Below are positions 1 through 64,000 of a stretch of 64,000 nucleotides of DNA, in pieces. The notes beneath the pieces were generated by a model. The model was not told the origin of the DNA. It did no database searches and saw only the letters and a list, made by a program, of their open reading frames with translations. Location of the stretch: positions 440,106 through 504,105 of the forward strand of contig CAVQOV010000010.1 in the NCBI GenBank assembly GCA_963714615.1, given 5' to 3'. The DNA comes from an uncultured Alphaproteobacteria bacterium (GTDB lineage: Bacteria > Pseudomonadota > Alphaproteobacteria > Rhodobacterales > Rhodobacteraceae). A program made the position numbers and the translations under genes. Numbering within the stretch: position 1 is the first letter of the stretch; each line of letters starts with the position of its first letter.

Positions 1-99
1 CTTAACTCGGTGAACGCGGCACTGGGCTTCGAGTCCGGGTTGGTGATTGTCGTCGTGGCCATTGTTCTGGATACCATGCTGCGGGTGGACCGGGGATGA
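1..99 (+). CDS. glycine betaine/proline ABC transporter permease (ProW-like), extreme C-terminus only; gene starts before window
   Basis: Open frame ...AIVLDTMLRVDRG* ends with TGA at 97-99, overlapping the ATG (96) of the downstream ProV-like ATPase (ATGA junction); hydrophobic tail typical of the permease end. Confidence 0.4.
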   Translation, partial: LNSVNAALGFESGLVIVVVAIVLDTMLRVDRG

Positions 100-1121
100 A
101 CGCTGTAGAGTTCGACAATGTTTCCATAGTCTTCGGCGAGACACCGCAAGCCGCCCTGCCCCTGATGGACGAAGGCCAGAGCCGCGGCGAGATTCAGGCA
201 GCCACCGGTCAGGTTCTTGGCGTGCATGACTGCTCACTTGAAGTGGGTGATGGTGAGATTCTGGTTCTGATGGGTCTGTCGGGGTCCGGAAAATCGACGC
301 TTCTACGTGCCGTGAATGGATTGAACCCGGTCGCGCGGGGCGAGGTTCGGGTCCGGGCGGGCGACACCATGACCTCGGTGACGCATGCCGACAAGGCGAC
401 GCTGCGCAAACTGCGGCTCAGCCATATCGCGATGGTGTTTCAGCAATTCGGCCTGCTGCCCTGGCGCACCGTGGCCGAGAATGTCGGGCTGGGGCTGGAA
501 CTCGGCGGCATGCCAAAGGCCGAACGCAACGCCAAGGTCACCGATCAACTCGCGCTTGTCGGCCTGTCCGACTGGGCGACCCGAAAAGTAGCAGAGCTTT
601 CGGGCGGCATGCAGCAGCGCGTGGGCTTGGCGCGCGCCTTTGCAACCGACGCGCCGATCCTGTTGATGGACGAGCCATTTTCCGCGCTCGACCCGCTGAT
701 CCGCGCGCGGCTGCAGGATGAACTTCTGGATTTGCAGAAAAAGCTGAAACGTACGATCATCTTCGTCAGCCACGATCTGGACGAGGCGTTCAAGCTGGGC
801 AACCGCATCGCGATCATGGAAGGCGGGCGCATCGTCCAGTGTGGCACCCCGCGCGACATCTTCACCAACCCGGCGAATGAGTATGTCGCGGATTTCGTCG
901 CCCACATGAACCCGCTTGGCGTGCTGTGCGCCCGCGATGTGATGGAACCGGCAAAGGCAACGCCAAAACAGACGGTCGGGCCTGACGAACTGATCCAGAA
1001 GGTGATGGAACGGGTCCATGCGACAGGCAACCCGGTCGGCGTGATCGAGGACGGCAAGTTGTTGGGTCAGATCACCAAGGATACCGTTCTGGCGAAGCTC
1101 CTCGATCCGCGCGGCGGCTAA
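96..1121 (+). CDS. proV: glycine betaine/proline ABC transporter ATP-binding protein (ProV/OpuAA type) with C-terminal CBS pair
   Basis: 341-aa ORF; Walker A GLSGSGKST, ABC signature LSGGMQQR, Walker B ILLMDE, H-loop SHD; C-terminal ~100 aa CBS-like region characteristic of ProV/OpuAA. Confidence 0.85.
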   Translation: MNAVEFDNVSIVFGETPQAALPLMDEGQSRGEIQAATGQVLGVHDCSLEVGDGEILVLMGLSGSGKSTLLRAVNGLNPVARGEVRVRAGDTMTSVTHADKATLRKLRLSHIAMVFQQFGLLPWRTVAENVGLGLELGGMPKAERNAKVTDQLALVGLSDWATRKVAELSGGMQQRVGLARAFATDAPILLMDEPFSALDPLIRARLQDELLDLQKKLKRTIIFVSHDLDEAFKLGNRIAIMEGGRIVQCGTPRDIFTNPANEYVADFVAHMNPLGVLCARDVMEPAKATPKQTVGPDELIQKVMERVHATGNPVGVIEDGKLLGQITKDTVLAKLLDPRGG

Positions 1122-1315
1122 GGCGGAAGACGGCGGGCGGAACCCGGCTCAGGCATCTGTTTCACCGCTTCAACTGCGCAATTTCCTTAACAATATCAAA
1201 ACGTTGCGCGCGGCAAAAGTTTTTCCGGGAAATCGACGGTTTTCACCATGGATGCCAAAGGCTTGGCAAGAAATGTTTCGTGCGCGAAACACCCCGACCC
1301 GCCGTTAGACGCGCC

Positions 1316-2215
1316 CTACAGCTTGGCGGCGTTGACCGGCGGGGTGACCCTGCGGCGCTGCTGCGCCTCTCTGATGGTGATATAGCTGATCGCGGCGATG
1401 ATCATGCCGCCGCCAAGCAGAACGTAAGGGTCCACGCCCTCGCCAAAGACCAACGCGCCCAGCAGCGTGGCCCAGACCAGTTGCAGGAACGTGACCGGTT
1501 GCGTCACGGTCAGCGGGGCCGCCGCGAAGGCGAGGGTCATCAGGTAATGACCAAGCGTTGCCAGGGCGGCGACCAGCGCCAGCAGGCCCAATTGCGCCAT
1601 GCTCGGATGCACCCAGGCGGCAAAGGCGAAGGGCGCCAGGCCGATCGTCACCGGCAGCGACAGCATCGCGACGATGGCGCCCGCGGGGGCGATGCCGGAC
1701 AGTTTCTTGGCGAAGAGATACGAGATGCCAAAGCACGCAGCGGCGCCGAGTTGCGCAAAATGCCCCGGCTCGATGACCCGCAGACCGGGCCGCAGCACCA
1801 CCAGCGCGCCTGCCAGCGCCATGGCGATGGCAAGGATCCGGCGCAGCGCCAGCGTTTCGCCAAAGATCAGCGCCGCACCGATGGTCACGACGACGGGGTT
1901 GAGATAGCCGATCGCCGTCACCTCGGCGATCGGAATCCGGGCCATCGCGAAGAACCAAAGCGTCACGGCCAGGCAATGCAGGGCGCCGCGCCACAGGAAC
2001 AGCGGGATCGCGCCTTTCGGGAATCCCGCACGCACGGCAGGGACCAGCGCGGGCATCAGGAACAGCAGTCCGAAGGCAAAGCGGATGAAGGCATTCTGCA
2101 CCGCCGGAAGGTCCGTGCCCAGATAGCGCACGATGCCAGTCACGCCGACAAAGCTGAACCCGCTGGCCAGCATCCAGAATATGCCCGCAAGCGGACGGTC
2201 GGCGACGTTTGTCAT
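1316..2215 (-). CDS. DMT superfamily (EamA-type) transporter
   Basis: ~300 aa, 10 predicted TM helices arranged as two EamA repeats; start taken at MTNVADRPLAGIFWML (ORF track extends to 2248). Confidence 0.8.
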   Translation of the reverse strand: MTNVADRPLAGIFWMLASGFSFVGVTGIVRYLGTDLPAVQNAFIRFAFGLLFLMPALVPAVRAGFPKGAIPLFLWRGALHCLAVTLWFFAMARIPIAEVTAIGYLNPVVVTIGAALIFGETLALRRILAIAMALAGALVVLRPGLRVIEPGHFAQLGAAACFGISYLFAKKLSGIAPAGAIVAMLSLPVTIGLAPFAFAAWVHPSMAQLGLLALVAALATLGHYLMTLAFAAAPLTVTQPVTFLQLVWATLLGALVFGEGVDPYVLLGGGMIIAAISYITIREAQQRRRVTPPVNAAKL

Positions 2216-2290
2216 GCGGGCAGATGACCCGATCGGCGCGGCAGGCACAAGGGGTCAGGTGCAGCCTCCCGGTCCGGGGCAGCGACGCCG

Positions 2291-3031
2291 CTACAACTGC
2301 GCGGCCACGTCCTCGGGCACGTCGATATTGGCGGTGACGTTCTGCACGTCGTCGTCGTCCTCCAGCGCCTCGATCAGCTTCATGACCTTCTGCGCGGTTT
2401 CAAGATCGACCTCGGTCGTGGTCTGCGGCTTCCAGATCAGCTTGGTCGTCTCGGATTCGCCCAGCTGCGCTTCAAGCGAGGTCGCAACCTCGTTCAGGTC
2501 GGTATCGGCGCAATAGATCCAGTGCCCGTCCTCGTCGCTTTCGACATCCTCGGCCCCGGCCTCGATCGCGGCCATCATCACGGTGTCGGCATCGCCGACC
2601 GCGGCGGGATACATGATCTCGCCCTTGCGCTCGAACATGAAGGAAACCGATCCGGTCTCGCCGAGGTTGCCGCCGTATTTCGTGAAGGTCGAGCGCACGT
2701 TGGACGCGGTCCGGTTGCGGTTGTCGGTCATCGCCTCGACGATCACCGCGATGCCGTTGGGCGCGTAGCCTTCATAGCGGATCTCGTCGTAGTTCTCGGC
2801 GTCGCCGCCCTGGCTTTTCTTGATCGCACGGTCGATCACGTCCTTGGGGACGGAGACCGACTTGGCCTCCTTCACCGCCAGCCGCAGCCGTGGATTCTTG
2901 TCGGGATCGGGATCGCCCATCTTGGCGGCGACGGTGATTTCCTTGGACAGCTTCGAAAAGAGTTTGGCCCGCATCTTGTCCTGCCGCCCCTTGCGGTGCT
3001 GGATGTTCGCCCATTTTGAATGGCCTGCCAT
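2291..3031 (-). CDS. YebC/PmpR family DNA-binding transcriptional regulator
   Basis: Hallmark N-terminus [15 protein letters not shown]...; 246 aa, conserved throughout. Confidence 0.9.
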
Positions 3032-3164: not shown

Positions 3165-4947
3165 ATGACCACCGACCAGATCATCCTCTTTTCGCTGTTT
3201 CGGCGCAGTCTTCGGCCTGCTGCTGTGGGGCCGGTTTCGCTATGATCTTGTGGCCTTTGCGGCGCTCATGGCCGGGGTGATTCTCGGGGTGGTTCCCACC
3301 AAGGACGCCTTTTCGGGGTTCGGCCATCCGGCGACGCTGATCGTGGCGCTGGTGCTGATCGTCTCTGGCGGGCTGGTGCGTTCGGGGGCGGTGTTCCTGA
3401 TCACCCGCACGCTGGTCAACAGCACCCGAAGCCTTGCGGGCCATATCGCGATCATGGGGGCTGTCGGCGGCGTGCTGTCGGCCTTCATGAACAACGTCGC
3501 GGCCCTTGCCTTGCTGATGCCGGTCGATATCCAGACCGCGCGCAAGGCCGGCCGCACGCCGGCCCTGTCGCTGATGCCGCTTTCGTTTGCCACGATCCTC
3601 GGCGGCATGGTGACGCTGATCGGCACGCCCCCCAACATCATCATCGCCGCGATCCGCGAGGACGCTCTGGGCGAACCGTTCAAAATGTTCGATTTCGCAC
3701 CGGTCGGCGCAGTGACGGCCATTGCCGGGCTTATCTTCGTGGCGCTGATCGGCTGGCGCCTGATCCCCAATCAGCCGGATGCAGCCTCATCCGGCAATGG
3801 CATGGAGGAAATTGGCCAGTATATCGCCGAACTGACGATCCCGGCGGACAGCAAGCATATCGGCAAGCGGTTGCAAGAACTGAACGAGACCGCGGAAAAG
3901 AACGATGTCGCAATTCTTGGCCTGATCCGCGACGGCCAGCGGCGCTATGGCACACAGCGCAACGCCGTGTTGCAGGTTGCTGATGCGCTGGTACTGGAAG
4001 CCTCGCCCGACGCACTTGATGAGTTCCGCGCGGCGCTGTCGCTGGATTTTTCTGACCCCAAGCGGCAAGACATCTTGCAGGCAGAGGGCGAGGGCCTGCG
4101 GATCGTTGAATGCGTGGTCACCGATGCGTCCCGGATCAATGGAAAAACCGCCCAGGCCATCGGACTGTCATGGCGTCGGCGGACTGTGCTGATGGGGATC
4201 TCGCGGCAAGGCAAACGGCTGCAAAAGCAGGTGCGCAAGACCATCATACGGGCCGGCGACATCCTGCTGCTGCTGGCGCCACAGGATCAGGCCGACGAGG
4301 TGGTCGATTGGCTTGGCTGCCTGCCGCTCGCCGATCGCGGGTTGGCAGTGACCGAGGATCGCAAGGTCTGGCTTGCCATCGGCCTTTTTGCCGTAGCGGT
4401 TGCCGCAGCCAGTCTGGGATGGATCTATCTGCCCGTCGCGTTGGGCGTGGTGGTTGTGGGCTACGCGCTGACCCGGATCGTGCCAGTGTCGGAAATCTAC
4501 AACCATGTCGAATGGCCGGTTGTGGTGCTGTTGGGGTCAATGATCCCATTGGGCGCGGCGCTGGAAACTTCTGGCGGCACCGAACTGATCGCGGGCGCCT
4601 TGGTCGGGTTCACCCAAGGCATGCCGTCCTGGGCCATTCTGACGGTCCTGATGGTCGTGACGATGACGCTGTCGGACGTGCTGAACAACACCGCGACAAC
4701 GATCGTCGCGGCCCCGGTGGGCATCCAGATGGCCGAACGGCTGGGCGTCTCGCCCGATCCGTTCCTGATGGCGGTTGCGGTCGCGGCTTCGTGCGCTTTC
4801 CTCACACCGATCGGGCACAAGAACAACACGTTGATTCTGGGGCCGGGCGGATACCGGTTTGGTGACTACTGGCGGATGGGACTGCCGCTGGAAGCGCTGG
4901 TCGTCGTGGTCTCGATCCCGGCGATCATGGTTTTCTGGCCGTTCTGA
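3165..4947 (+). pseudogene. SLC13/DASS-type permease with two central TrkA-C (RCK_C) domains (YfbS-like); +1 frameshift at ~3198
   Basis: MTTDQIILFSLF (frame 0, ATG 3165) continues as GAVFGLLLWGRFRYDLVAFAALMAGV only after skipping one base near 3198; the 565-aa ORF 3250-4947 has TM core - two TrkA-C-like soluble domains - TM core, with ILGGMVTLIGTPPNII motifs. Confidence 0.75.
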
Positions 4948-4949
4948 GC

Positions 4950-5278
4950 CGCCTAACGCGCGGCGAAGGTCACGCGCTGCCACGCTGACACTCGGGTTGG
5001 TCACCGGGTCGCCGCGTGGCAATTCCAGCCGTGGTGTTCTGGGGTCGGAACCACGCACCTCATAAGGCAAAAGATGCGGGCACCCGGAAAGCTGACCGGT
5101 CCAGTCGCGGGCGCGGCCGGGGCGGTGGCCAGCGCAGAGCGTGCCATCGGACATCAGCACATTCAGCCCTACCGGATACAGCAAGGCCCGCTTCGGCTCG
5201 GCGATAGCGGCTGTCTGCGCATACGTTGCGGGCTGCGCGCAGACCGCCAAGGACAAGACATAAGGCAAGCAGCCGCAG
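4950..5278 (-). CDS. possible small secreted protein (signal peptide MLRLLALCLVLGGLRAA...), extent unclear
   Basis: Signal-peptide-like start at 5278 in the gap between two convergent permease genes; no clear stop before running antisense into the upstream gene; weak. Confidence 0.15.
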
Positions 5279-5285
5279 CACCCGA

Positions 5286-7070
5286 TCAGACCGGCCAAAG
5301 GATCGGGATCACGAAGCTGGCGGCGATCCCAAGGATGATGTTCAGCGGGATGCCGACGCGCATGTAATCGGTGAATTTGTAGCCGCCCGGCCCGTAGACC
5401 AGCATGTTGGTCTGATACCCGATCGGGGTCGAGAAAGCCGCCGAGGCCGCGAACATCACCGCGACGACCAGCGGGCGCGGATCGAGGCCAAGGGCATACC
5501 CAAGCTCGATCGCGATCGGCGCAAAAATCACGCCGACCGCATTGTTGGACACAAGCTCTGTCAGCGTCGAGGCCAGCATGATAGATCACGAGGATGACGG
5601 CAAAGGGCGGCAGCCCGGCCAGGAACGGCTCGACCGCATTGACGATCAGCGTGACCGTACCGATATGTTCCAAGCCCGACCCCGACGGCGAGCATCGCAA
5701 AGATCAGGGCCAACAGGCGGCCTTCGACGAAGGAAAACGCCTCGTCCGCGTCGATGCATCGGGCCAGCAGGATGACCGCGACGCCGACGACCGCCAAAGC
5801 CAGGATTGGGGCGACACCAAACGCCGAAAGCACGACGACGCCCAGCAGCACGCCGATGGCAATCGGGGCCTGACTGCGCCGGTAGGCCTTGACCGCGGGA
5901 TGCGAGATATCGACCAGTTCCATGTCGGCGGCCAGACGCTCGATATCCTCGGCCGCGCCTTCCAGAAGCAGTGTGTCGCCAACGCGCACGACCAGATCGT
6001 CCAGTTGCCGGCCGATGTTCTGGTTCCGCCGATGCACCGCCAGCGGATAGACGCCGTAGCGCCGCCGCAAGCGCATCGAACCAAGCGACCGGCCGATCAT
6101 CTCTGCAACCCGGCGTGATCAGAACCTCGACGGTCGATGGTCTGGACCGAGCTCAGCTCGTCGACCATCCGCACGTCCTTGTTCTGCTGAAGGCCCAGAA
6201 GCTCTGCCATTTCGGTGCGCAACACGACGCGGTCGCCGGCGGCAAGCTGAACTCCGGTCAGATCGCGGCGCAATGACGCATCGCCGCGCAGCACGTCGAT
6301 CAGGCGGACGCCTTCGCGCTTGAACAGCTCGATTTCGTTCACGTCGCGCCCGATCAGCGCGGAATCAACGGGCACGGCAACTTCGGTGAAGTACTTCATC
6401 TTCCGCCGGTCGCTAAGCAACACGCCCATCGATTGCCGGTCAGGCAGCAGCCGACGCCCGATCAGCCCGATGTAGGCCATCCCGATTACAACCTGCACCA
6501 GCCCCAGCCCGGTGATCTCGAAGATCGAGAACGGAGCAAGTCCCTTGGCCCGTGCAACGCCATCGACCAGCAGGTTCGTCGAGGTGCCGATCAGCGTCAG
6601 CGTGCCGCCGAGAATCGCGAAATACGACAACGGAATCAGCAGCTTGGATGGAGCTACGCCCAAGCTTGCGGGCAACCTGAATGAAAACCGGGATCATCAC
6701 CACAACGACCGGCGTGTTGTTCATGAAGGCCGATCCCAACGCCACGCAGCACAAGCAAGATTACAAGCGTTGCCTTGGGGCGGCGCGATGCCTGGGCCTC
6801 GGCGTGTTGCGTCAGCCATTCCAGCGCCCCGGTCCTGACCAGTCCGCCCATGATCAGAAACATCGCGATGATGGTCCAGGGGGCCGGATTCGACAGCACG
6901 GTCAGCGCCGCATCGTAGGGCAGCATGCCAAAAACCAGCATCAGCGCTGCGGCGGAAATGGCGATCACCTCGGCCGGATACCGCTCGGACACGAAAAGGG
7001 CAAACATCAGGATGATCAACGCGAGGCCCAAAAAGGCCATGCTGGTGTCCGAAAGTCCAAGTTCTATCAT
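5286..7070 (-). pseudogene. second SLC13/TrkA-C permease paralogue, split into four frames (6654-7070, 6097-6675, 5561-6100, 5286-5579)
   Basis: The four consecutive minus-strand ORF fragments together reproduce the TM-core/TrkA-C/TM-core architecture; the C-terminal fragment ...FSTPIGYQTNMLVYGPGGYKFTDYMRVGIPLNI parallels the C-terminus of the 3165-4947 protein. Confidence 0.65.
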
Positions 7071-8015
7071 GGCGATCCGTGTTCTGGTTCCGGACCCGCA
7101 TCATGGGGCAGCGGCGTGGACCCCGCAAGCGCCGTTGCGGGCCTGGGCTGAACCATGAAGAGGCCCGTGAAGATGACGCCAAGCGCCAGCCAGATCCAGT
7201 TTGAATATGTCTCGGACAGCAGGACCATCGCCCAGAAAATGCCAAAGGCCGTAACCAGATACGACACCTGAGCCGCGAAGACACTGCCCGACCGCCCGAC
7301 CAGCCACACATAACCGGCATAGGCCAGCGCATGAATGGCCGAGGACAAGATCAGTGCGAGATCGGGAAGATTGAGGTCGGTATGCGGCGGAATCCACGTG
7401 CCGGAGACGACCGCAAGCGGTGCCGTCAGCACGATCCCCACCAGTGAGGCGCCCAGCAGCACCTGAATACCGCTGCAGCCATAAGTGCCCCATTTCGCGA
7501 CGATATTGCCCTCTAGGCCATAGAAAATCGGGGCGACCATCGCCAGCGGGATGAACGCCGCCATTGCCCGATCCGGCAGGCTGGCGTCCGGCACGATCAG
7601 CAGGCTGACCCCGATCAACCCGACAAACAGGCCCAACAGCCTTTTCCAGTCGAACCTGTCAGTGCGCATCACGAGTGCGATCGGGAACACGAACATCGGT
7701 ACCGTGGACATGATGATGGAAAGCACCCCCGCCGGCAGATGCCGCGCGGCCTCATAAGAGGCGGCAGTTGGGCAGCAGAGTGCCGATCATCGCGATGATC
7801 AAATAAAGCCGTAATTGTCTTTTGCCCAGCGGCAGGGTTTTGCCACGGAGGGCAAGAATGGTACCAAGAACAAGCGCTCCAACGACGAATTGCCAGAAGA
7901 TCAGGCCGAAATGGCGATAGCCTTCGGACACGGCGATCTTCGTCATCGGCTGGGTCGCACCCCAAGCCGCGCCCAGCAAGACCAGGACGCCCAGCAGCCC
8001 CCGGTGTTCTGTCAT
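7067..8015 (-). pseudogene. DMT/EamA-family transporter, split in two frames (7752-8015 and 7067-7726)
   Basis: N-terminal fragment MTEHRGLLGVLVLLGAAWGATQPMTKIAV... stops at 7752; the remaining EamA repeats continue in another frame from 7726; frame change within 7727-7751. Confidence 0.65.
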
Positions 8016-8824: not shown

Positions 8825-8874
8825 GCCAACGTGCTAGGGCGCGGATCGTCGAAGGGCAAGCAGGACTTGACGCG

Positions 8875-9451: not shown

Positions 9452-10871
9452 TCAGATCAACACCAGTGCAGCAAGCCCCAGGAACGCGAAGAACCCCACG
9501 ACATCCGTTACCGTGGTGACGAAGGCGCCCGACGCAAGCGCCGGATCGACGCCGAAGCGTTCCAGAACAACCGGAATGCCGATACCGGCCAGCCCGGCCA
9601 CGACCAGGTTGATCACCATTGCAAAGGCGATCACCAGTCCCAACAGGGGCGAACTAAACCAGACGAACCCCACGATACCCATGACGGTGGCGAAAATCAG
9701 ACCGTTTGCCAGCCCGACCAGCACTTCGCGCCGGATCACCCGCCAGACATTCGATCCCGTCAGGTCGCGGGTCGCGATTGCGCGAACCGCCACGGTCAGC
9801 GCCTGGGTTCCGGCATTGCCACCCATCGAGGCCACGATTGGCATCAGAACGGCCAGTGACACCAAGGCCGCGATGGTGGATTCGAATTGTGCTATGACCA
9901 TCGAGGCCAGAATCGCGGTCACCAAGTTCACCGCCAGCCACGGCAGCCGCCGCTTCGTCGTTTCGATGACCTTGTCCGACAGACTACCCTCGCCCACACC
10001 GGCGAGACGCAGAATGTCCTCTTCATGTTCTTCGTCAAGAACCGCCATCGCGTCGTCGATGGTGATGACGCCGACCAGCCGGCCAGTGCTGTCAACAACC
10101 GGCGCCGAGATCAGGTGATACTGGTTGAAGGCATAGGCAACATCGCCCTCTTCCTCGTCCACTTCAAAGGCCCGGAAACTGTCCTCGGCAATGTCCAGCA
10201 GCTTGACGTCCCGGGCGCGAGGATAGCAGCCGGCCGAGCGTTACATAACCAACAGGCTCCAGCCGCGGATTGACCAGAACCAGGTGGTAGAATTGTTCCG
10301 GAAGATCCTTGGAGTTTCTCAAGAAATCAATCGCTTCGCCGACGGTCCAGTGCTCTGGCCCCATCACGACCTCGCGCTGCATCAGACGGCCGGCGGAATA
10401 TTCCGGATACGACATCGCCTGCTCGACAGCCACCCGGTCGGCATCTTCAAGCGCGTCTAGGATCGCTTCCTGCTGCGGCTGATCGAGATCCTCCAGAAGG
10501 TCGACGACATCGTCTGATTCAAGCTCTCGAACGGCCTCGGCCAGAACTTCGGGACGCAGATAGCCGATGACCTCGTCACGAATACCTTCGTCGAGCTCGG
10601 ACAGGATATCGCCGTCGAATTCGTGGCCATAAAGCTGCACCAGTGCGCGCCGCTCGTGGCCGTCGATCTGTTCCAGAAGGTCGGCGATGTCAGCCGCGTG
10701 CAGCGGCGCCATCAACTCGGTCAGACGAGCGGCATCATGCGCTTCGACGGCGTTGCGGATCGCTGCGACATCGCGCTGGTCGAGGACGTAGGCATCCTCG
10801 TCGCGGTCGTGTTCGATTTCGGCCTCGTCAATCATCAGCCAACCCCTGCGCTTTTTGATCACAATAGGCAA
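9452..10871 (-). pseudogene. mgtE: magnesium transporter MgtE; frameshift at ~10163 separates the N-terminal (MgtE_N + CBS) and C-terminal (CBS + TM) halves
   Basis: ORF 10164-10871 encodes the acidic MgtE N-domain; ORF 9452-10162 encodes the CBS and 5-TM channel domain (…PIVASMGGNAGTQALTVAVRAI…); adjacent, same strand, different frames. Confidence 0.8.
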
Positions 10872-10947: not shown

Positions 10948-12256
10948 TTGGAAAACCACATGCCAAAATCAACCCTTCTGCTTGGCCAGACGCTTGCCTT
11001 CACCGCAGACCCGTTCCGCGTGCCAGTCGAAGAGGTCGCACGCCACGAAAGGCGCGGCGCCGTACTGATCGAGGACGGCCGAATTGCCGAGGTCGGCACC
11101 GCCGACGCGCTGCGCGCGGCCCATCGGGGCGCAGAGGTGACCGACTACGGCGACGGCCTGATCACTGCCGGGTTTGTCGATTCGCATGCGCATTACCCGC
11201 AGACCGCGATCATTGCGAGCTGGGGAAAGCGGCTGATCGATTGGCTGAACAGCTATACCTTCCCCGAGGAACTGCGCTTTGACGATCCGGCCTATGCGGC
11301 CGAGATCGCGCGGCTGTATTTCGACCTGACGCTGGCCAACGGAACGACGACGGTCGCCAGCTATTGCACCATCCACCCTGAAAGCGTCGATGCTTTCTTT
11401 GCCGAAGCGCAGCGGCGCAAAGTGCGGGCGGTGGCGGGCAAGACCTGCATGGACCGAAACGCGCCCGACGGCCTTTGCGACACACCGCAGACCGCATACG
11501 ACCAGTCCAAGGCGCTGTTGGCAAAGTGGCACGGGGTTGACCGGCTGTCCTATGCGATCACGCCGCGTTTCTCACCGACTTCGACGCCCGAACAGCTTGC
11601 CGCGATGGGCGAGCTTGTGGGCCGAGCAGCCCGATTGCCTGATGCAAACCCATCTATCGGAGCAGACCGACGAGATCGATTGGGTCGCGCGGCTCTTCCC
11701 GACAGCGCGGGACTACCTGGACACATATGAAAGCCACGGATTGCTTGGGCCCGGGCGGCATGTACGGCCACGCGATCCACCTGACAGACCGCGAACGCGC
11801 GCGGCTGCGCGAGGTCGATGCAGCCCTGATCCATTGCCCGACATCGAACACGTTCATCGGCTCGGGGCTTGTTCGACATGGGCGGCTTGAAGGCCGCCGG
11901 TCACCGGATCGGTCTGGCAACGGATACCGGCGGCGGGTCTTCTTTCTCGATGCTGCGCACAATGGCTGCGGCCTATGAGGTCGGGCAATTGCGCGGAACC
12001 CCGCTGCACGCCGCACAGCTTTACTGGCTGGCAACGGTCGGCTCGGCTCAGGCGATGCGAATGGACGGACAAATCGGAAACCTTTCCAAAGGGATTAGAG
12101 GCCGATCTTATTGTGATCGATCTGGCATCAACGCCTGCCACGGCACAAAGATCAGCCCGTGCCGCCAACTTCTGGGAGGCGCTGTTCCCGACGATCATGA
12201 TGGGCGACGACCGCGCCATCACGGCAGTCTGGGTCAATGGCAAACCGCTGCGCTAG
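10948..12256 (+). pseudogene. guaD: guanine deaminase (amidohydrolase superfamily), frame broken at least 4 times (~11590, ~11760, ~11870, ~12090)
   Basis: N-terminal 10948-~11590 has ...GFVDSHAHYPQT... metal site; continuation ...LMQTHLSEQTDEIDWV..., ...HAIHLTDRERARL..., ...GLATDTGGGSSFSML..., ...ADLIVIDLASTPATAQR... lie in successive different frames. Confidence 0.7.
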
Positions 12257-12744: not shown

Positions 12745-12762
12745 TCGGTTCTCCTCCGCGCT

Positions 12763-36872: not shown

Positions 36873-36878
36873 CCTCAG

Positions 36879-43214: not shown

Positions 43215-43463
43215 ACAGGGAGGACTGGGAGGATCTGAACTTTGGCGGCACGGCGATGCGGGCAGATGGCAAATCTGCGGCGAATGCCTGCTGGTCTTAA
43301 TACCCAAGGCAGCGACGGCAGAAAACGGCAACGGTGAGGGCGACAGCGCTTTACTGAACGGTTTCGCTTTGCCTGTCGAGTTGTCTGGCACCTGCCAATG
43401 CGCGGCGACCCGCGTGCCTTGGCGCTTACAAAATATCCGTGGTCTGCAAATGGAGGACGACCA

Positions 43464-52925: not shown

Positions 52926-53985
52926 CTATGCCGTCAGTTTGCCGTCCGGAGGGCCGTTTTGCGGTCCGGACTGCGGCCCGGACGAGGCCCAGCCCTCCAT
53001 GTCGGTCACCAGCGTCACGCAGGCCCGGCCTTTGTGCTTGGAGGCATAGAGTGCCGCATCCGCATCGGCCAGCATCTGCTCTGCCACGGGGCTTGTGTAA
53101 AACGAGCTGATCGTGATGCCGACACTGCCCGATATCCGGCAGGTCCGGCCTTCGAAGGGCACAGGCTCTTCGAGCCGCTCGATGATGCGCGTGGCAATGC
53201 CGGTCAGGCGCTCGGGATCGATCTGACGGTCAAAGATCAGCACGAACTCATCGCCGCCAACGCGCGCAACGGTATCGGCATCGCGGGTTTCTTCGACCAG
53301 AATTTTGCGCCACGACCTGCAACACATGGTCGCCCGCGGCATGGCCGTAGCTGTCATTCACATCCTTGAAGTAGTCCAGATCCAGATGCATCAGCGCAAA
53401 TCGCGCGCCCGATCCGATCAGCCGCGCCAGCACGTGATCCATGGCGCGGCGGTTCTTCAGGCCCGTCAGCGTATCGGTAAAGGCCTGCTCTTCCGCGGCG
53501 ATCCGCGCGCCCTGCAAGCGCACATTCAGATTGCGCGACTCGTTCATCACGGCGGATTTCGCCTCGATCAGATACAGCATCTCGACCGTCAGGTCGGTCG
53601 GCGCGAAATCGGCGATGGTCAGTTGGTGGTCGCGCACGGCATCGGCCACCGCGATCCCGAACGACAGGTTCACCAGCAGCCCGCCGCCCGCCGCCAGCGG
53701 CACCGCGATCCCCTTGAATGTGGTCTGCGGCGCGGTGCGAAAGCGCAGGTGCAGCGGCGCATCTACCGCAGCGCGCAGATCGGCCATCGAGTGGATGTTG
53801 CGCGGCCGGCGCAGTTCCATCACCTCAAGAAACCGAACACCGGCCAGATCGGCACCGGGGCGAAGCTTGGCCAGCGTCGGGGCGGCGCGCACGATATGCC
53901 CGGTCTGCGACAGGGTCAGATGCATCGGCAGCAATCGGTCCAGATCGGCCGCCGGAAGCGATGTTATGTCAGGCTGTTTTGTCAT
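52926..53985 (-). pseudogene. H-NOX-associated diguanylate cyclase (N-terminal sensor domain + GGDEF); frameshift ~53300
   Basis: ORF 53248-54012 has the sensor domain and the start of GGDEF (...RFALMHLDLDYFKDVNDSYGHAAGDHVLQVVA...), ORF 52926-53357 the rest (...ARVGGDEFVLIF...); 1-nt spacing to the hnoX stop (TGACATG). Confidence 0.75.
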
Positions 53986-54604: not shown

Positions 54605-56393
54605 CTAGCGCGGCACTGTTAACAATCGGCAAATGTCAGGGCAACATGATGAAACTGGGTCTCTCCGAAGCGGATCGCGTTCACGCTGGAGGGTGCCAGA
54701 CTCGAACTCGCCGGCGAGGATCAGATCAAGGACGTCATCCGAACTGATCGAGACCTCCGGCCCTGTCAGCCGCACCGGCATGCCGTGATTGCGCCACTGG
54801 CCGGGCGCCGCCCGGCTCCACATTTCCAGACGCACCCAGCCGCCAGTTTGCTTGGTGGCCAACAAAACCTCAGTCGCCTTCGCGCGCCGGCAGGAAATCC
54901 GCCAGCAGCAGCGCGCAGCCGGGATTGCCCGCCGCCGTCCTGCGCCCGCAGGACTCGATCCACAGGCCCGGCGATCCGGCGTCGCCGAACACCTCTGCCG
55001 GAACCACGGCCCCTGCGGGGCGCACCGGCACCAGCGCCAGAAACTCGCGCATCCGGTCGGATCGCGGCCCGCTGAGCAACTGTTCATAGCTATAAAAGTC
55101 AGTGGCCTTTTCCAGCGCTGCAAGCTGCTCGGCGACCACGGCCTGCCCCGCGCCCTCGACCTTGGCGAAGAGCGGCGCCGTGATGCTGCCCGCAATCCCC
55201 CAGGTCTTGCCGATGGTCCAAAGGTCAAGATCCTCGCGCTTGGTCTGGCCTGCCTGATACCGGGCCAGCTGATCGTTCGCCGAGATCCGTTGCGGGTTCA
55301 TCACCGGCGTCAGCCAAAGCGCTGCCACCGCCACGACGACCAGCGCCATCCAGGTGTTGAAACGGCGGATGTCCGACATCCAGCCGCGTCGCCGCGCGAC
55401 CGCAATGACATAGAGCAGCGCATACCCCAGCACGAGCGCGGCGATCGTTGCTGCCGCCAGCCGGTCCGGCGACCAGCCGTGCTGGTTGACCCGTTCGCGG
55501 ATCGCATAGAGCGCCAGCCCCGCCAGAACCGGCAGGGTCAGCGCCAGTGCCTGACTTGCCAGCCGCATGAACGGCATCGTAACGGCCTCGTCATCGGACT
55601 GATCGATCGCGGTGCTGACCAGAGTGATCCCGCCAACCGCCATCGCCAGCAGAATTCCCGCCGCCGACAGCCCCCCGAACAGGCCGGAAAGCCCGCGCAC
55701 CGGCACCATCACCACAAAGATCGCGACCACCAGCAGATACCAAAGGCAGCAGCAGGCGTAGCAGCCGCAGGATCAGATAGGGTGACACATACTCCGACAG
55801 CTCGTTCACGACCGCGAGTGCCAGCCCAAGCACCAGACCCGACAGCACATAGGGCACCGGCGCGATATCCAGCAGGTCGTCAAGGATCTCGAGCCCGATG
55901 ATGCCGAAAAGCTCATTCGAGAGCAGCAGCACTGCCCAGAAAAGCCCCATGAACAGCCATGCCGCGACATAGCGCACGACGATGTTCCAGGACTGGTTGA
56001 AGAGTTCCGGATAGTCGCGCCAGTTCCCGACCGGCCCAAGTGCTGCGATCAGGAATGGCACGGGCAGAGCGACGCCAGAACCACGAAAGCGACCAGCGGA
56101 TGACCGGATTCAAGAAAATCCTCGACGTTTTCGAACCGGAAACTGGCCCACAGGAACAGCAGCGACGGCAGCACCGACACCGCCAGCCCGACCAGAACCG
56201 CACGCCCCGCCGACAGCGGGCCCGAGGCCGCCAGCAAGGCGGCAAAGAACGCGCCGAACAGCGTGGCCAGAAACATCACGATACGGTCGTTCTGAATCTC
56301 GTCGGGCAGCACGTCGGCCAGCACCCAAAGCGCAAGCCCGGCGACCGCCCCCATCGCGGCCATCCGTGCCCGATCTGTTGACGTGCTGCTCAT
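54605..56393 (-). pseudogene. large membrane protein of unknown function (N-terminal polytopic domain ~12 TM + C-terminal soluble region; DUF4153-like, tentative); at least 3 frame changes
   Basis: Four contiguous minus-strand fragments (56049-56393, 55591-56061, 54870-55730, 54605-55228) read as one hydrophobic protein. Confidence 0.5.
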
Positions 56394-56481
56394 AGCTGCG
56401 AAACCCATGCGCCTTGCCCCTGCTTTTTCGCAAAGGTTAGCGCCAAGCGCGCCGGTGCGCCACTCCTTGCGGGCAGGGCGC

Positions 56482-58045
56482 TCAGAAATCCGTCGGCGCG
56501 CCGCCCTCGGCCTTGCGGCGGGCCACGAAATCGGCCAGTTCCTCGCGGATCGCATCATCCATCGCGGGCGGCTCGAAGCTGGCGATGATCTCCTTGAACA
56601 TCCGGTGCGCCCGCTCTGGCGTCCAGAGCGCCGCCCGACAACTCCCAGGCCTCGTAGTTGCGCCAGTCGCTCAGGAACGGCTGGTAGAACGCCTCTTCAT
56701 AGCGATCCTGAGTGTGCTGGATGCCGAAGAAATGGCCAGTCGTGACCAACCTCGTTGATCGCATCGATGCGCGATATCGTCCGGGCCGGTCGCATAGGTC
56801 GCGGGTTCGAAATAGCGCTGGATCTGCTGCAATATCTCGCAATCCATGATGAATTTCTCGGGGCTCGCGATCAGCCCGCCCTCCAGCCAGCCGGCCGCGT
56901 GATAGACCATGTTGGTGCCCGACTGGACCGCCGCCCAAAGCGAATTCGAGGTCTCCCACATCGCCTGCCCGTCCGGCACGTTCGCCGCGCACACGCCCGA
57001 GGATCGCAGCGGCAGCCCGTAGAACCGCGCCAACTGCCCGGTCATCTGCGTGGCGCGCATGTATTCCGGCGTACCAAAGGCCGGCGCACCGGATTTCATG
57101 TCGACGTTCGAGGTGAACGTGCCAAAGGCGCAAGGCGCGCCCGGCCGCATCCACTGCGCCATCGCGATCGTGCAAAGCCCCTCGGCGATCGACTGCGCCA
57201 CCGCGCCCGCCATCGTCACCGGCGCCATCGCGCCGGCCAGCGTGAACGGCGTCACAACCGTCGCCTGCCCGCGCTTCACGCAGCGCATGTAGCCATCCAG
57301 CATCGGCGTGTCGTGCTTCAGGGGCGAGGTCGAGTTGATGTTGGTGTACATCCGCGGCGTCGCCTCGAACTCTTCATGGCTCAGGCCGCCCGCGATGCGC
57401 ACCATCTCCATCACGTCCTCGACCCGTTCGCTGCCCAGCGAGTAGGCATGCGCCACCTTGTCGGTCAGCGTCAGCTTGTCATAAAGCACGTCAAGGTGGC
57501 GCACCGAGGCATGCACGTCGACCGGTTCGACCGGATAGCCGCCCGCGACATGGATGCAGTTGAAATATTGCGTCAGCTTCAGCAGGTTCGCGCAATGCTC
57601 GCGGGTGCCCGGCATCTTGCCGGTCTCCAGATCCCAGTAGTTCGGCGGCGAGGAGACGTTGACGAACACCATATGCTTGCCGCCGATGGTGATCTTGCGG
57701 TCAGGGTTGCGCGGCGTGATTGTGAATTCCGACGGCGCGCGCGCCAGCATCTCCATCACGAAATCGCGGCCCATCCGGACATTCGTGCCATTCGACGGTG
57801 CAGCCCGCATCCTTGCAGGATCGCCAAGGCTTTCGTCATTCAGGAACTCGATGCCGATCTCTTCCAGAATCCGCATTGCCCCGTCATGGATCGCGTGCAC
57901 ACCCGTCTTCGTCCAGCGGCTCGGTCGGGCGGTCGGTATTGACCGGCATCCGCCACGGCATCTGCTCGATCACATTGGGGCTGGACCGCCGGACATTGCC
58001 CGAGCGCCCGCCCGAGCGTTTTCTGCGATGTGCATCATCGGTCAT
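56482..58045 (-). pseudogene. MttB-superfamily methyltransferase (trimethylamine/glycine-betaine methyltransferase-like, non-pyrrolysine); at least 3 frame changes
   Basis: 409-aa core ORF 56671-57900 (...VTPFTLAGAMAPVTMAGAVAQS...) with N-terminal (from MTDDAHRRKR at 58045) and C-terminal (...HFFGIQHTQDRYEEAFYQPFLSDWRNYEAWE...APTDF*) extensions in other frames. Confidence 0.7.
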
Positions 58046-59767: not shown

Positions 59768-61163
59768 ATGACGGGGCGCATTCTGATCGCGGACGATGTT
59801 GCAACCAACCGCATCATCATGAAGGTCAAGCTGTCCGCGGCCTCTTACGGCGTGGTGCAGGCCGACAGCGGTGACGCCGTGCTTGCAGCGTTGACCGATG
59901 ACCTGCCGGATCTCATCATCCTGGATGTCGATCTGCCCGATATCGACGGCATCACGCTGTGCCGCAAGATCCGCGAGAACCCGGCGACCACCGACATTCC
60001 GGTGATCATCGTCTCGTCGCGCACCGATCCCGATACCCGCCTTGCCGCGCTGCGGGCCGGGCGCAGAGGAATTCCTGCCCAAGCCGCTGGATGAAATGAT
60101 CCTGCTGGCGCGCGTGCGCAATCTGATCCGGTCGCGGGCGCTGAGCGAGGAATTGAAGCTGCGCGAAGGCACCGCGATCAAACTGGGTTTTGCCGAGGCG
60201 CCCTCGGCGTTCACCCGCACCGAACGCGTTGTTCTGGTCGCCAAGCGCCCGGATATCGCGCTTGGCTGGCGCCGCGCCGATCGAAGGCGAAAGTCTCGGC
60301 CGAGGTCGAGGTCATGCCCTACGAGCAGCTTCTTGAAACGATTGGCAAATCGCGCCGCGGTCCCGATCTTCTGGTGATCCCGGCGGGGCTGAAATCGGGC
60401 GCAAGCGGGCTGATATCTGCTGGCGGAACTGCGCAGCCGCGCGCAGACCCGGCATTCCGCGATCCTGGTCGTGCATGAGGACGGCGACCTTTTCAGCGCC
60501 ATCGCAGCGCTTGATATGGGCGCCGACGATGTGCTGACCGCAACCTGCAGCGCCACCGAAATGGCGTTGCGCATCCGTCGCCAGCTTGACCGCAAGGCGC
60601 AGGCCGACCGGCTGCGCGCCACGGTCGAGGACGGGTTGAAACTGGCGATGACCGACCCGCTGACCGGGCTTTTCAACCGCCGCTACGCGCTGCCGCACCT
60701 GTCTCGGATCGCCGCGCGCGCGGTAGCCGATGATCGGCCGTTTGCCGTGATGGTGCTGGATATCGACCGCTTCAAGCTGGTCAACGATCGAACATGGCCA
60801 TTCCGCTGGCGATGCGGTGCTGCGCGAGGTCGCGCACCGCATCAAGGACAACCTGCGCAGCGTCGATCTGGTCGCCCGCTTCGGCGGCGAGGAATTTCTG
60901 GTCGCGATGCCCGATACCGATCTGGCCTCGGCCCGCATCACCGCCGAACGCTTGCGCGCGGTGATCGAAAACACCCCGGTCATGCTGCCCGGCGGCGCGG
61001 GTCAGGTGTCGGTCACGCTCAGTATCGGCGTCGCGATTGGCAGGCCTGCCCGATGAGGCCGCAGAGAACGTGGAAAAACTTGTCGATTGTGCCGACAAAG
61101 CATTGCTTTGGGCGAAATCCGGGGGCCGCAATCAGGTGAACGTTCGGCCAGACCGCCGCCTAG
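59768..61163 (+). pseudogene. pleD: PleD-like response regulator diguanylate cyclase (REC-REC-GGEEF); at least 5 frame changes
   Basis: REC1 MTGRILIADDVATNRIIMKV...DLIILDVDLPDIDGI...; REC2 and GGDEF (...MTDPLTGLFNRRY..., ...[14 protein letters not shown]..., ...LLWAKSGGRNQVNV) spread over five ORF fragments; probable TAG at 61161-61163 forms a CTAG shared with the convergent gene stop. Confidence 0.7.
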
Positions 61164-61660
61164 CCTCGCCAGCGACGTCGGTCGCGCGCGGCACGTCGCA
61201 GGTTGCGCTCCAGCCGGTCGGCAAAGGCCGCGCGCTCGTCGTCGCTCATCGCCTCGATCCGGTCCAGCAGCAGCGCTTGCCCGATCGCCTGACGTTCCTC
61301 CAACTTGGTCTGTCTGGCGTTCCACCAGCGCCGCCAGGCCCCGGCGTCGAACGGTTGGGCACGCAGCGCGGCCAGCATCTCGGCAAATTGCCGGCGAATA
61401 TCGTCGCGGTTGCTCTGCAAATCGCCCGCGTGACCGATCAGACCCCGCGCCAGCGCGTGCCTGTCGGACGGCGACAAAGCCTCGCCGAACGGCCCATAGC
61501 CCAGATCGCGCAGCGGCGGGTGATCGTCAAAACGGTCATGGCGCAGCATCGCGCCCGCGACCAGACCAACGACCAGCAGGTTCAGCGCCAGCGAGGCGAA
61601 AAGAACGATCCGGGTCCATGGCAGACCGCGCGATTTCGAAGGATCAGGCGATGTCAGTCA
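61160..61660 (-). CDS. periplasmic Spy/CpxP-like stress protein with N-terminal TM/signal segment; start region probably carries an indel
   Basis: ...WTRIVLFASLALNLLVVGLVAGAML then an arginine/glutamate-rich helical domain (...RRQFAEMLAALRAQ...ERQAIGQALLLDRIEAMSDDERAAFADRLERNLRR...); downstream of an ECF sigma/anti-sigma pair. Confidence 0.45.
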
Positions 61661-61715
61661 TGTTTATCCCTCAGCCAGTACAGACTGTCATAAGCCGGCC
61701 ATGAGATCGCCCAGA

Positions 61716-62064
61716 TCATAGCCGTTCCCGTCGCCAGAGCCCGTCGGCAACCCGCCAAACATATCCCGGCTGTGCATATCCGATCCAGATTCCGGCCACC
61801 GTCGCCGTGGCCAGACCCGCCATCGCCGGCCAGCCGCCGATGCCATCGACGAGCCCACCAAGCCAGCCGCGCGGCCCACCCGGCACAGTGCGCTGACCGG
61901 CCGATCGTTCCGCCAGCACCGCGTCGGCATCCGCCAGAACCCGCGCCAGCAGCGCCTCGGACGGCTCTGGCGCCGATGCGGCCGCAGCGGCCAACAGCTG
62001 GTCCAGCTCCGTTCTGCACGATCTGCTGTCCTAGTCTTCGTCATATCCCAACTCCTCGCGCCGT
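61716..62064 (-). CDS. small anti-sigma factor with C-terminal TM helix (frame change near the start)
   Basis: ATG 62064 (MTKTR...) then ...AELDQLLAAAAASAPEPSEALLARVLADADAVLAE...GWLGGLVDGIGGWPAMAGLATATVAGIWIGY; immediately downstream of the ECF sigma. Confidence 0.4.
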
Positions 62065-62618
62065 TCCGACCAAAGCAGCGGCCAGCGCCCGTTTTCCCCG
62101 CGCGGTCAGACTTTCGACCGCCTCGACGCTCATGTCCATCACCGCGGCGATCTCGGGGTTCGCCATGCCCTCGATATGGCGCAGCACCACCGCCTGCCGC
62201 TGCCGCTCGGGCAGGCCCTGCAACGCGTTGGCTCAGCGCCGCCTGCCGCTCGGCCTCTTCCAGTCCCCGCCTGCACGCTGGCCGCACCGTCCGGCGGTTC
62301 CGGGATCGCGTCGATATCCACCCAACGCCGGCGCCGCAACCGGTCGGTGCACAGATTGCTGACCACGCGGTAGAGCCACGTCGTGACCTTCGCCTCGCCC
62401 TGCCGCCACTCGGGCGCAATGCGCCATAGCCGCAGCATCGCCTCCTGCGCCACATCCTCGGCCTCGGCCCGGTCGCCCAGCATCCGCGCGGCATAGCCCA
62501 GAACCCGCGGCGTCAGACGCCGCGTCAACTCGAGCGCGGCATCGCGGTCGCCATTGCCGAAGGCGACCAGCAAGACCTCGTCGGATACGTCGCTCTGGGC
62601 GTCAAACGGCATCGTCAT
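62041..62618 (-). pseudogene. ECF (group IV sigma-70 family) RNA polymerase sigma factor; frameshift ~62230
   Basis: Region 2 ...DVAQEAMLRLWRIAPEWRQGEAKVTTWLYRVVSNLCTDRLRRRR... in ORF 62139-62759; region 4 ...LPERQRQAVVLRHIEGMANPEIAAVMDMSVEAVESLTARGKRAL... in ORF 62041-62223. Confidence 0.75.
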
Positions 62619-62699
62619 TGTCCAGTCTGGTATCCCGAATCGAGCACCCCGGCAATCAGGCGGGCGGCAGCAGGAACCTGCCGCCCGCCGATTGGTCTT

Positions 62700-63236
62700 A
62701 GCCGCGATCGCCGTGCATGCCTGGCCGCCGCGTATGTCGCCACGTTCGCTGATCACCATCGCGACCGGCCCATCCGACCGCGTTCCTGCATGGCGGCGAA
62801 TTCCTCGGCCGAGATCGCGCCATCGTCATCCGCGTCCAGCACGCATGAACATCCGCGACCCGGCATTGCTCGGCCATCTCGGCCTCGCTCAGCATGCCAT
62901 CGCCGTCGCTGTCGCGCCATTCGATCATCCGCGCCATCCGCGGCAGCGGCCCGCTTCTGCGGCACGCGCAGCCACGGCGGCGGTCAGTTCCTCGGCGGAC
63001 AATTTGCCGTCAGCCGTTGGTGTCGGTTTCGGCAAAACGCGGCAGAACGTGCGCGCCTTGACTTCGGCAATCGTGATGCTGCCGTCGCCGTCGCTATCGA
63101 GTTCCTGAAACGTCGGGCGCTCGCCCATACCGCCCATTGGCCCGGCACCGCGGCTGTCTGCATTCGCGACTCCAAGCGCCAGTCCCGCAACAGCGGCTAC
63201 AGCAAGGCTTCCCAAAACGATCTTCTTCATAGTCAA
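62700..63236 (-). pseudogene. secreted EF-hand calcium-binding protein with at least 3 EF-hand loops; in three frames
   Basis: Signal MKKIVLGSLAVAAVAGLALGVANA; loops DSDGDGSITIAE, DADDDGAISAEE, DSDGDGMLSEAE in ORFs 62925-63236, 62753-62965, 62698-62937. Confidence 0.6.
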
Positions 63237-63445
63237 CTCCTATTCTGGTTTCTGCCTGACGCGCGGCCCCATTCGACCACCCGTTCTGATGTTAAAACGC
63301 GGCCTGCCGAGTTTTCCGTCGCGCCCGGAGTAAGATTTTCTAGCGCGGCCTTTGCGACATCCCGACGCAAGGACACTTCGCCTCCTTCTATCGGGGCCAT
63401 GAATGCTTACTCTTGGGGTTCTCCTTGAAAGGTGCGATATTTCCG

Positions 63446-63830
63446 ATGATGACCGACCAACTGCCCCTGCCCGACGACCGAGAACTACGCCCCGCTCTGT
63501 TGCGCGGCTGGCGCCGGCGTTGCCCGAACTGCGGGTCGGGCCCGATGCTCAAGGGCTATCTGCAGGTGCGCGACGCATGTGCGGTCTGCGGCGAGGCGAT
63601 GCACCACCACCGCGCCGATGATGGCCCGGCGTACCTTACGATCCTGATCGTCGGGCCATATCATGGCGCCTTCGATCCTAATCGTATTCACCGCGTTTCG
63701 CCCCGAACCAATGGTGCTTTTCACCGGATTTCGCGATTGGCTGCGTCGCGCTGTCGCTGTATCTGTTGCCAAGGCTGAAGGGCCTGATGGTGGCCTTTCA
63801 GTGGGCCCGGCGGATGCACGGCTTCACCTG
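63446..63830 (+). pseudogene. DUF983-family zinc-ribbon membrane protein; frameshift ~63655
   Basis: MMTDQLP...[51 protein letters not shown] then hydrophobic continuation ...[36 protein letters not shown] in another frame. Confidence 0.6.
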
Positions 63831-63860
63831 AAGCCCCGCCCGCCCGGTGAAGGAACGTCG

Positions 63861-64000
63861 ATGACCCAGACCCCGATCCGCGATGCCGCCACGATAATCA
63901 TCGTGCGTGACGTGGCCACCGCACCCAAGATCCTGATGGGCCAGCGCGGTGCCAAGGCCGCCTTCATGCCCAACAAGTTCGTCTTTCCCGGCGGCGCTGT
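63861..64000 (+). CDS. NUDIX hydrolase (CoA pyrophosphatase-like), N-terminal part; continues beyond window
   Basis: [45 protein letters not shown]...; DUF983 plus NUDIX adjacency is common in alphaproteobacteria. Confidence 0.55.

Follow-up and report, generated by a model that had tools for sequence, protein, structure and literature searches.

Frameshifts in nearly half of the genes in a 64-kb stretch of Rhodobacterales DNA are very probably consensus errors of the assembly

The DNA analysed here, hereafter the window, is a stretch of 64,000 nucleotides (positions 440,106 to 504,105 of contig CAVQOV010000010.1, assembly GCA_963714615.1) from an uncultured member of the Rhodobacterales (Paracoccaceae), with a G+C content of 63%. 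Pfam scans of long open reading frames (ORFs) show ordinary chromosomal genes, which include an ABC ATPase, EamA, YebC, SLC13/CitMHS, YmdB, MgtE, GatA, TerC, TelA, SPFH, PfkB, AtuA, TctABC, a sugar ABC operon, FGGY, GH4, a Na/Ala symporter, GGDEF and MttB. A first-pass annotation made from the letters alone had claimed that adjacent ORF fragments on the same strand continue one protein in different frames, so that about 30 of ~70 genes would be interrupted. Searches with orthologues by tblastn revealed just such frame changes; the second SLC13 copy, for example, is tracked through frames -3/-1/-2/-3/-1/-2/-3 at 80-90% identity. Frameshift-aware alignment of proteins to DNA covered 54,131 bp of coding sequence and identified 100 events. 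At 1.85 per kb, this rate makes the earlier estimate of about 1 per kb roughly two-fold too low. Together, 29 of the 61 aligned genes are frameshifted, and two more, encoding EF-hand and DUF983 proteins, are probably so on the basis of partial Pfam matches. Of the 100 events, 93 are insertions (88 of one base and 5 of two) and 7 are deletions (6 of one base and 1 of two); the longest is 2 bp.

The principal reference for these comparisons is GCA_049667725.1, a metagenome-assembled genome (MAG) of the same species and another strain, hereafter the sister MAG. An exact-protein look-up with the intact YmdB led to a 19,987-bp contig of this assembly, on which the neighbouring genes are all intact, and two more of its contigs were found via homologues. 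These contigs (L081, L082 and L085, sized 9.5-20 kb) cover positions 1-18840 of the window at 96.6% DNA identity, 22387-31912 at 98.0%, and most of 31750-42826 at ~97%, with ~80% in 36.0-39.8 kb. A scan of a genome collection with YmdB as the query returned Rhodobacterales only, and the top species representative (85% protein identity) is syntenic with 1-18.8 kb. For the genes in 49.2-62.6 kb we used a syntenic metagenome contig from the Joint Genome Institute (L086), and for 42.3-49.1 kb the reference proteins came from a Mesorhizobium plasmid operon (L087). A second metagenome scan gave relatives of 88% identity at most, which served as extra references.

Frameshifts were called with a local protein-to-DNA aligner that treats frameshifts as explicit states; it was written for this analysis and supplied with intact orthologues as references. 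When 14 of the reference proteins were aligned to 80 related loci, the aligner reported 11 events in 197,051 aligned residues, a background of ~0.02 per kb, and the rate in the window is ~100-fold higher. Event positions in the sugar operon were recovered with six further references per gene, and those in AtuA, TctA, TelA, RluB and the zinc-ribbon gene with a second MAG as the reference. Two other approaches were set aside. Frame plots of third-position G+C content were too noisy for mapping at 63% GC, and homology was used instead. A wider control took stop-to-stop ORFs as references, but upstream non-coding parts of the ORFs and overlapping genes produced 1-10 spurious calls per locus, isolate genomes included, and the control was discarded as a test for a platform signature. 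In a more distant short-read MAG, GCA_041633555.1, PfkB is called as two genes of 110 and 187 amino acids (aa; L083, 12991-13911) and the Amidohydro445 orthologue (L001) carries a +1 frameshift, indicating that occasional frameshifts occur in that assembly too.

The affected genes begin with an SLC13/CitMHS transporter (593 aa; 3165..4944, plus strand) that carries a single frameshift, an extra C at 3201 in codon 12, resolved to the base against L081. On the minus strand follow a hypothetical protein of 108 aa (4956..5281; +1 at 4976 and 5242), the second SLC13/CitMHS transporter (592 aa; 5289..7070) with six +1 events (5581, 5672, 6103, 6139, 6664 and 6755) and no stops, an EamA transporter (315 aa; 7070..8015; +1 at 7767) and the magnesium transporter MgtE (460 aa; 9455..10835), which has one +1 event at 10217 and another at 10838 in its upstream spacer. 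The guanine deaminase-like amidohydrolase GuaD (430 aa; 10960..12253, plus) carries four (+1 at 11610, 11744, 11871 and 12091), and a CAP-domain protein (160 aa; 12256..12745, minus) one (+1 at 12359). In GatA, the amidotransferase subunit (21309..22875, minus), a +1 event near 22053, placed against the L079 orthologue, splits the Pfam Amidase match. On the plus strand, an RluB-like pseudouridine synthase (259 aa; 25863..26640) has an extra C at 26430 in DNA that is otherwise identical to L082, and TelA (394 aa; 28710..29893) has +1 events at 28989 and 29592. The SPFH/Band-7 protein with a GYF domain (369 aa; 30884..32006, plus) carries 6-7 frameshifts, all in its C-terminal half (+1 at 31415, 31521, 31656, 31772 and 31925; -1 at 31607), and the adjoining zinc-ribbon protein (364 aa; 32023..33115, plus) carries two within its first 38 codons (+G at 32028, +C at 32134), with a further -1 in the spacer at 32019.

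A dense group of minus-strand genes comes next. AtuA (452 aa; 35526..36878) is hit three times, in its N-terminal 112 codons only (+1 near 36546, 36706 and 36752, with two references), and TctA (501 aa; 36888..38389) 7-8 times (36936, 36953 [+2], 37491, 37912, 38024, 38187 and 38308, with two references). TctB (146 aa; 38399..38833) has five events (38600, 38626 [+2], 38684, 38703 and 38725), a count that is less certain with a reference 71% identical, and TctC (322 aa; 38850..39818) has six (38943, 39004, 39020, 39033, 39346 and 39419). The SorC-family regulator (40675..41576, plus) carries an extra A at 41294 and an extra T at 41519, together with stops at 40735 (Trp to stop) and 41092 (TGC to TGA). 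In the plus-strand sugar operon, each gene aligned with seven independent references, the ABC substrate-binding protein (43425..44518) has +1 events at 43764 and ~43837-43846, the ABC permease (45496..46721) has them at 45601 and 45707, and the SDR oxidoreductase (46747..47474) has five events (+1 at 46906, +2 at ~46937, -1 at ~47140, -1 at 47247 and +1 at ~47293). The FGGY carbohydrate kinase (47501..49101, plus) has 8-11 (47633, 47652, 47698 [-1], 47931, 47962, 48479, 48513 [+2], 48569, 48612, 48667 and 48800 [-1]).

Downstream of the operon, a GH4 glycosidase (453 aa; 49203..50554, minus) carries +1 events near 49773 and 50341, and a GGDEF diguanylate cyclase (326 aa; 52977..53931, minus) one near 53307. 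Immediately upstream of this cyclase is the gene for an H-NOX (HNOB) sensor (the two span 52977-54574 on the minus strand), an arrangement kept in L086; together they form a putative nitric oxide-responsive cyclic di-GMP pair. The DUF4153 membrane protein (588 aa; 54639..56408, minus) has five events (54657, 54700, 54872, 55737 and 56075 [+2]) and the MttB-family methyltransferase (518 aa; 56485..58045, minus) has seven in two groups (56629, 56738 and 56769; 57790, 57815, 57828 and 57904), with 92% aa identity to L086 and no stops. Seven are also found in a PleD-like response regulator with a GGDEF domain (462 aa; 59768..61160, plus; 60059, 60279, 60289, 60416, 60789, 61042 and 61139). A metal-resistance (Spy-like) protein (61172..61648, minus) shows a mutually compensating pair at 61313 (+1) and 61339 (-1), less certain with a reference 74% identical, and a hypothetical protein of 121 aa (61681..62027, minus) shows two events of low confidence (61699 and 61736) with a reference 65% identical. 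The ECF sigma factor (62034..62588, minus) has three (62070, 62230 and 62267). Judged by its Pfam match, the EF-hand protein (62701..63239, minus) is probably split, with a match at 62928-63239 and its continuation in another frame at 62701-63009, and the DUF983 protein (63344..63775, plus) is probably cut short by a frameshift, with only profile positions 2-36 of 85 matched.

The genes that the first-pass annotation had named as frameshifted are thus largely those recovered here, although EF-hand and DUF983 reach only the probable grade and MarR appears intact. Its five spot checks located real events to within ~10 nt but named the inserted base wrongly in some; they resolve as +C at 3201, +G (not C) at 31415, +C (not G) at 31521, a one-base deletion at 31607 and +G at 32028. 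Its remark that housekeeping genes are not spared also holds, since GatA, MgtE and RluB are frameshifted like the others.

Comparison with the sister MAG allowed 29 unpaired one-base insertions and two one-base deletions to be placed to the base (binomial p=4.6e-7). The inserted base is G in 13 cases, C in 12, A in 3 and T in 1; G or C accounts for 25 of 29, an enrichment even over the 63% GC background (p=0.0055). Only five of the 29 inserted bases equal a flanking base where simulation predicts 15 (p=0.0002), and at 23 of the 29 sites the runs are of only 1-2 bases. The homopolymer association typical of polished Oxford Nanopore Technologies (ONT) or PacBio assemblies was therefore not found at these sites. 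No positional motif was found around the 29 sites, and inspection by eye found neither the same base two positions away nor a GANTC-type methylation context. None of the 29 insertions and two deletions occurs in the sister MAG, a different strain, where every affected gene is intact.

The remaining indels that distinguish the two strains look natural and are of a different class: they are intergenic, multiples of three, or compensated within a few bases. This class includes a 3-bp deletion, intergenic length changes and, in the CAP-domain gene, an in-frame 9-bp tandem duplication at 12649-12659 (unit TGCCGCAAG on the minus strand). The duplication is natural length variation and is unlike the one-base insertions.

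The composition of the insertions bears directly on a mutator origin, in which a lineage deficient in mismatch repair or proofreading would accumulate replication-slippage indels. Such a lineage could explain many one-base indels with few other visible changes, and the first-pass annotation had offered it as an option. Mismatch-repair mutators and contingency loci that slip in homopolymers or simple sequence repeats share the single-base frameshifts seen here. However, slippage is expected in homopolymers and short repeats and in both directions, whereas the events here lie outside repeats and run 29:2 in favour of insertion. Since the inserted base rarely equals its neighbour, the insertions are not the product of slippage. 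A mutator should also raise substitutions, nonsense and missense included, and none of this was seen. The genes whose defect could produce such a mutator, mutS, mutL and dnaQ, lie outside the window. We therefore regard a mutator lineage as exceedingly improbable.

A further proposal is that the extra bases are real and are bypassed through programmed +1 ribosomal frameshifting or transcriptional slippage. Nearly all events would need the same one-base skip, and the sequence downstream of them is perfectly conserved. Transcriptional slippage rescues poly-A frameshifts in the endosymbionts Buchnera and Blochmannia, and programmed +1 frameshifting operates in prfB-type genes; in the window, too, a +1 correction would restore each reading frame. 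In contrast to those systems, the sites share no slippery or stop-codon motif, and the old frame continues for 15 to ~400 nt before a stop instead of stalling at the site as in prfB-type genes. Poly-A/T tracts on which the polymerase could slip are lacking, non-coding DNA is equally affected, and the sites are conserved neither in the conspecific MAG nor in more distant orthologues. Recoding of this kind is the least credible of the explanations considered.

If the interrupted genes were decaying, traces of relaxed selection should accompany the frameshifts. With the extra bases removed, the ratio of nonsynonymous to synonymous differences (pN/pS) against the sister MAG is 0.09 for broken genes and 0.08 for intact genes; against the more distant L086 the values are 0.20 and 0.19. 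Strong constraint persists even in genes with 6-7 events (SLC13, 0.05-0.06; MttB, 0.13; PleD, 0.12). Inclusion of the TctABC block raises the value for broken genes to 0.18, but that block is ~80% identical to its reference with a pS of ~0.43, so that pN/pS there is saturated and uninformative on a recent relaxation of selection. Apart from this low-powered block, no raised ratio was found in broken genes. A rise in pN/pS close to the frameshifts (0.23 within 30 nt, 0.13 beyond) was not used as evidence, because both the diverged TctABC block and the uncertain alignment around shift points confound it.

In-frame stops are absent from 60 of the 61 aligned genes; the two that exist both lie in SorC, in keeping with the earlier remark that there is almost no nonsense decay. 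Assuming from general knowledge that substitutions outnumber indels by about ten to one, 100 neutral indels at no fewer than ten substitutions each should have come with ~1000 extra substitutions and tens of stops, which are not seen. Furthermore, the base-resolved events fall on coding and non-coding DNA alike (28 in 31,286 bp and 3 in 3,920 bp; p=1.0).

These results weigh on the possibility of a genuine and very recent mass pseudogenisation, in which some half of the genes would be in the course of being lost under relaxed selection, for example in a newly host-restricted bacterium. The frameshifts are, after all, present in the deposited sequence; events per gene are over-dispersed, with multiply hit genes beside untouched ones; whole operons are affected; and SorC, with its two nonsense codons, resembles a true pseudogene. 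The genomes of Mycobacterium leprae, Sodalis glossinidius and Serratia symbiotica likewise have a large fraction of genes interrupted with fragments still recognisable. Those host-restricted genomes, however, combine nonsense mutations, deletions of many sizes, insertion sequence (IS) insertions, raised dN/dS and a deletional bias, and none of these marks of decay is seen in the window. Bacterial pseudogenes are biased toward deletions and have a long tail of indel sizes; the 93 insertions and 7 deletions found here, all of 2 bp or less, show neither that bias nor that size range, and no large deletions or IS elements were found among the identified genes. Up to 11 frameshifts in a gene have left 60 of 61 genes without a nonsense codon, pN/pS is equal in broken and intact genes, coding and non-coding densities are equal, GatA is affected, and the patches of events cross gene boundaries. 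Mass pseudogenisation would thus require a novel, insertion-only mutational burst that left no substitutions, and we consider it very unlikely. The preference of the first-pass annotation for sequencing or assembly error over long-term decay is borne out by the equal pN/pS, the confinement of stops to SorC, the equal coding and non-coding densities and the intact genes of the conspecific MAG.

SorC itself is a separate case. At the corresponding locus of the sister MAG (L085, 8900-9799) no gene is called, and a fragment of a substrate-binding protein lies downstream. On account of its two nonsense codons and this missing gene call, SorC is probably a genuine pseudogene beneath the added errors, and the only one in the window.

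The events are distributed unevenly, with a variance-to-mean ratio of 3.0 per kb and 32 event-free genes, against 15 expected under a Poisson distribution (chi-square p=5.5e-10). Clean stretches (12.4-22.0 kb, 32.2-36.5 kb and 50.4-53.3 kb) alternate with dense patches of 7-9 events per kb (36.5-39.5 kb and 46.9-48.8 kb). Some patches do not follow genes: one at 31415-32134 extends over the C-terminal half of SPFH, across the spacer and into the zinc-ribbon gene as far as codon 38. Others are confined to part of a gene, as in AtuA, where only the first 112 codons are affected, and in MttB, where 1 kb of clean sequence separates two patches of 115-140 bp. Event density correlates with local GC content (Spearman 0.48, p=1e-4); its correlation with divergence from the sister strain is weaker (Spearman 0.39, p=0.016).

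Within an artefactual origin, a distribution of this kind may reflect a hybrid or partly polished assembly, in which some stretches were corrected with the help of short reads or of reads from co-occurring strains, while GC-rich or strain-specific segments, poorly covered by accurate reads, kept their long-read errors. Error-free stretches of 4-10 kb do alternate with patches of 5-9 events per kb, density tracks both GC content and sister-strain divergence, and the densest patch, 36.5-39.8 kb, is the stretch only ~80% identical between the strains. The patch at 3.2-12.4 kb, however, lies in DNA 96-98% identical to the sister strain, and the same pattern would arise from uneven long-read depth by itself. 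We therefore put forward partial polishing tentatively, as a possible but not the likelier form of the artefact.

Three further observations concern particular segments of the window. In 36000-39800, where the frameshifts are also densest, identity to the sister MAG is only ~80% over the 5' part of AtuA, TctA, TctB and TctC, compared with 96-98% in other parts, as though recombination or transfer had replaced the allele. In 24000-27000, divergence from the sister MAG is 0-0.7% compared with 2-7% in the flanking DNA, and DLH and RluB are without synonymous differences, which suggests that the two strains came to share this segment recently through recombination. Finally, a full-length bacterial RNase P RNA of class A (19557-19949, minus; Rfam, 291 bits) lies beside the gene for ribosomal protein L33 (19260-19481, minus); both are in a frameshift-free stretch, and the ORFs that overlap the RNase P gene are spurious.

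Taken together, the small size of the indels, their direction toward insertion, their non-repeat context, their blindness to coding and function, the lack of decay around them and their absence from the conspecific MAG lead us to conclude that the frameshifts are, very probably, uncorrected consensus errors of the deposited assembly and not mutations in the organism, as far as comparison of sequences allows this to be judged. These six features fit consensus error and no known bacterial mutation process. The genes of the organism itself are almost certainly intact.

Contiguity offers a clue to how such errors could have arisen. The window belongs to a contig of 519,308 bp, and the contigs of the sister MAG measure 9.5-20 kb; a half-megabase contig beside sister contigs of 10-20 kb suggests a long-read metagenome assembly. 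We propose that the 519,308-bp contig was, most probably, assembled from noisy long reads whose depth was low or uneven, and that its consensus was polished in part or not at all. Extra bases would then have survived the consensus step; they are almost always a single G or C unlike both neighbours and fall into patches, of up to 7-9 per kb in GC-rich stretches, with 4-10 kb of event-free sequence between them. Gene callers would subsequently split or fuse the affected genes, whose artefactual products have entered public collections. The errors may have come from random insertions that persisted where depth was low, from a consensus step prone to insertions, or from short-read polishing that was left incomplete in GC-rich or strain-specific segments.

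Indel errors that fragment genes in assemblies of long reads (ONT or PacBio continuous long reads) were reportedly described by Watson and Warr in 2019. The likeness to the window is considerable: one-base indels split conserved genes, several per gene and housekeeping genes included; they are absent from the accurate assemblies of relatives; and a long contig stands against fragmented short-read MAGs of the same species. Such gene-fragmenting indels in long-read assemblies have also been described with Kastor (PMC12007338) and ARAMIS (PMC8574707). In those accounts, residual long-read errors in well-covered isolates are mostly linked to homopolymers and, in high-GC genomes, are mostly deletions of G or C (PMC8574707, PMC12007338). 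The profile in the window differs from these published residuals, with 93% insertions, an inserted base that avoids its neighbours and a density that tracks GC content. This insertion-rich profile speaks for random insertion noise at low depth, or for a consensus step prone to insertions, and not for the classical homopolymer problem; its atypical character limits what can be said of the platform, but not the conclusion that the events are artefacts.

Several points nevertheless weigh against an origin in consensus error. Non-homopolymer insertions are not what published long-read residual errors look like. The sister MAG represents another strain, with 2-3.4% divergence, and each insertion could strictly be a difference between strains. 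The comparison is one of consensus sequences only. The most-hit genes form operons (TctABC-AtuA and SBP-permease-SDR-FGGY, where SBP is the substrate-binding protein), as they would if real pathways were being lost, and a runs test by hand on the order of broken and intact genes was not significant (z ~-1.4). In the TctABC region, moreover, pN/pS has too little power to reveal recently relaxed selection. A further reading is a real and very recent burst of non-slippage +1 G/C insertions, concentrated in the GC-rich DNA of an environmental Paracoccaceae lineage. Its cause would be an unfamiliar mutational process, to which an intercalating mutagen or an aberrant polymerase might give rise, with an onset so late that neither selection nor substitutions had yet left a trace; we hold such a burst to be highly improbable.

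The consequences of consensus error can be followed into the public databases. Eight products of the window (six truncated fragments, a 744-aa fusion and TerC as an intact control) were looked up in a public protein collection and all were present verbatim. All eight sit on one unannotated contig of 519,308 bp, with NCBI and ENA as the sources and no protein accessions. The fusion is the ORF at 30884-33118 (plus strand), in which frameshifts join the SPFH/GYF protein to the zinc-ribbon protein, and this chimera is filed in a cluster of zinc-ribbon proteins; five of the eight products are the representatives of their own clusters. We found no second assembly of the same strain: the cluster mates of MgtE, the zinc-ribbon protein, GuaD and TerC are at most 99% identical, the closest all being from GCA_049667725.1, and the RluB site pattern, with or without the extra base, had no exact match in the metagenome contigs scanned.

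Nearly half of the gene models on the contig are artefactual fragments or fusions. Pseudogene counts, estimates of pathway completeness, pangenome analyses and claims of a 'novel protein family' that draw on this assembly would be wrong, and polishers or filters focused on homopolymers would miss errors of this insertion-biased, non-homopolymer, GC-correlated and patchy kind. For the biology of the organism the frameshifts carry no significance; their relevance is to the quality of the data from which that biology is read.

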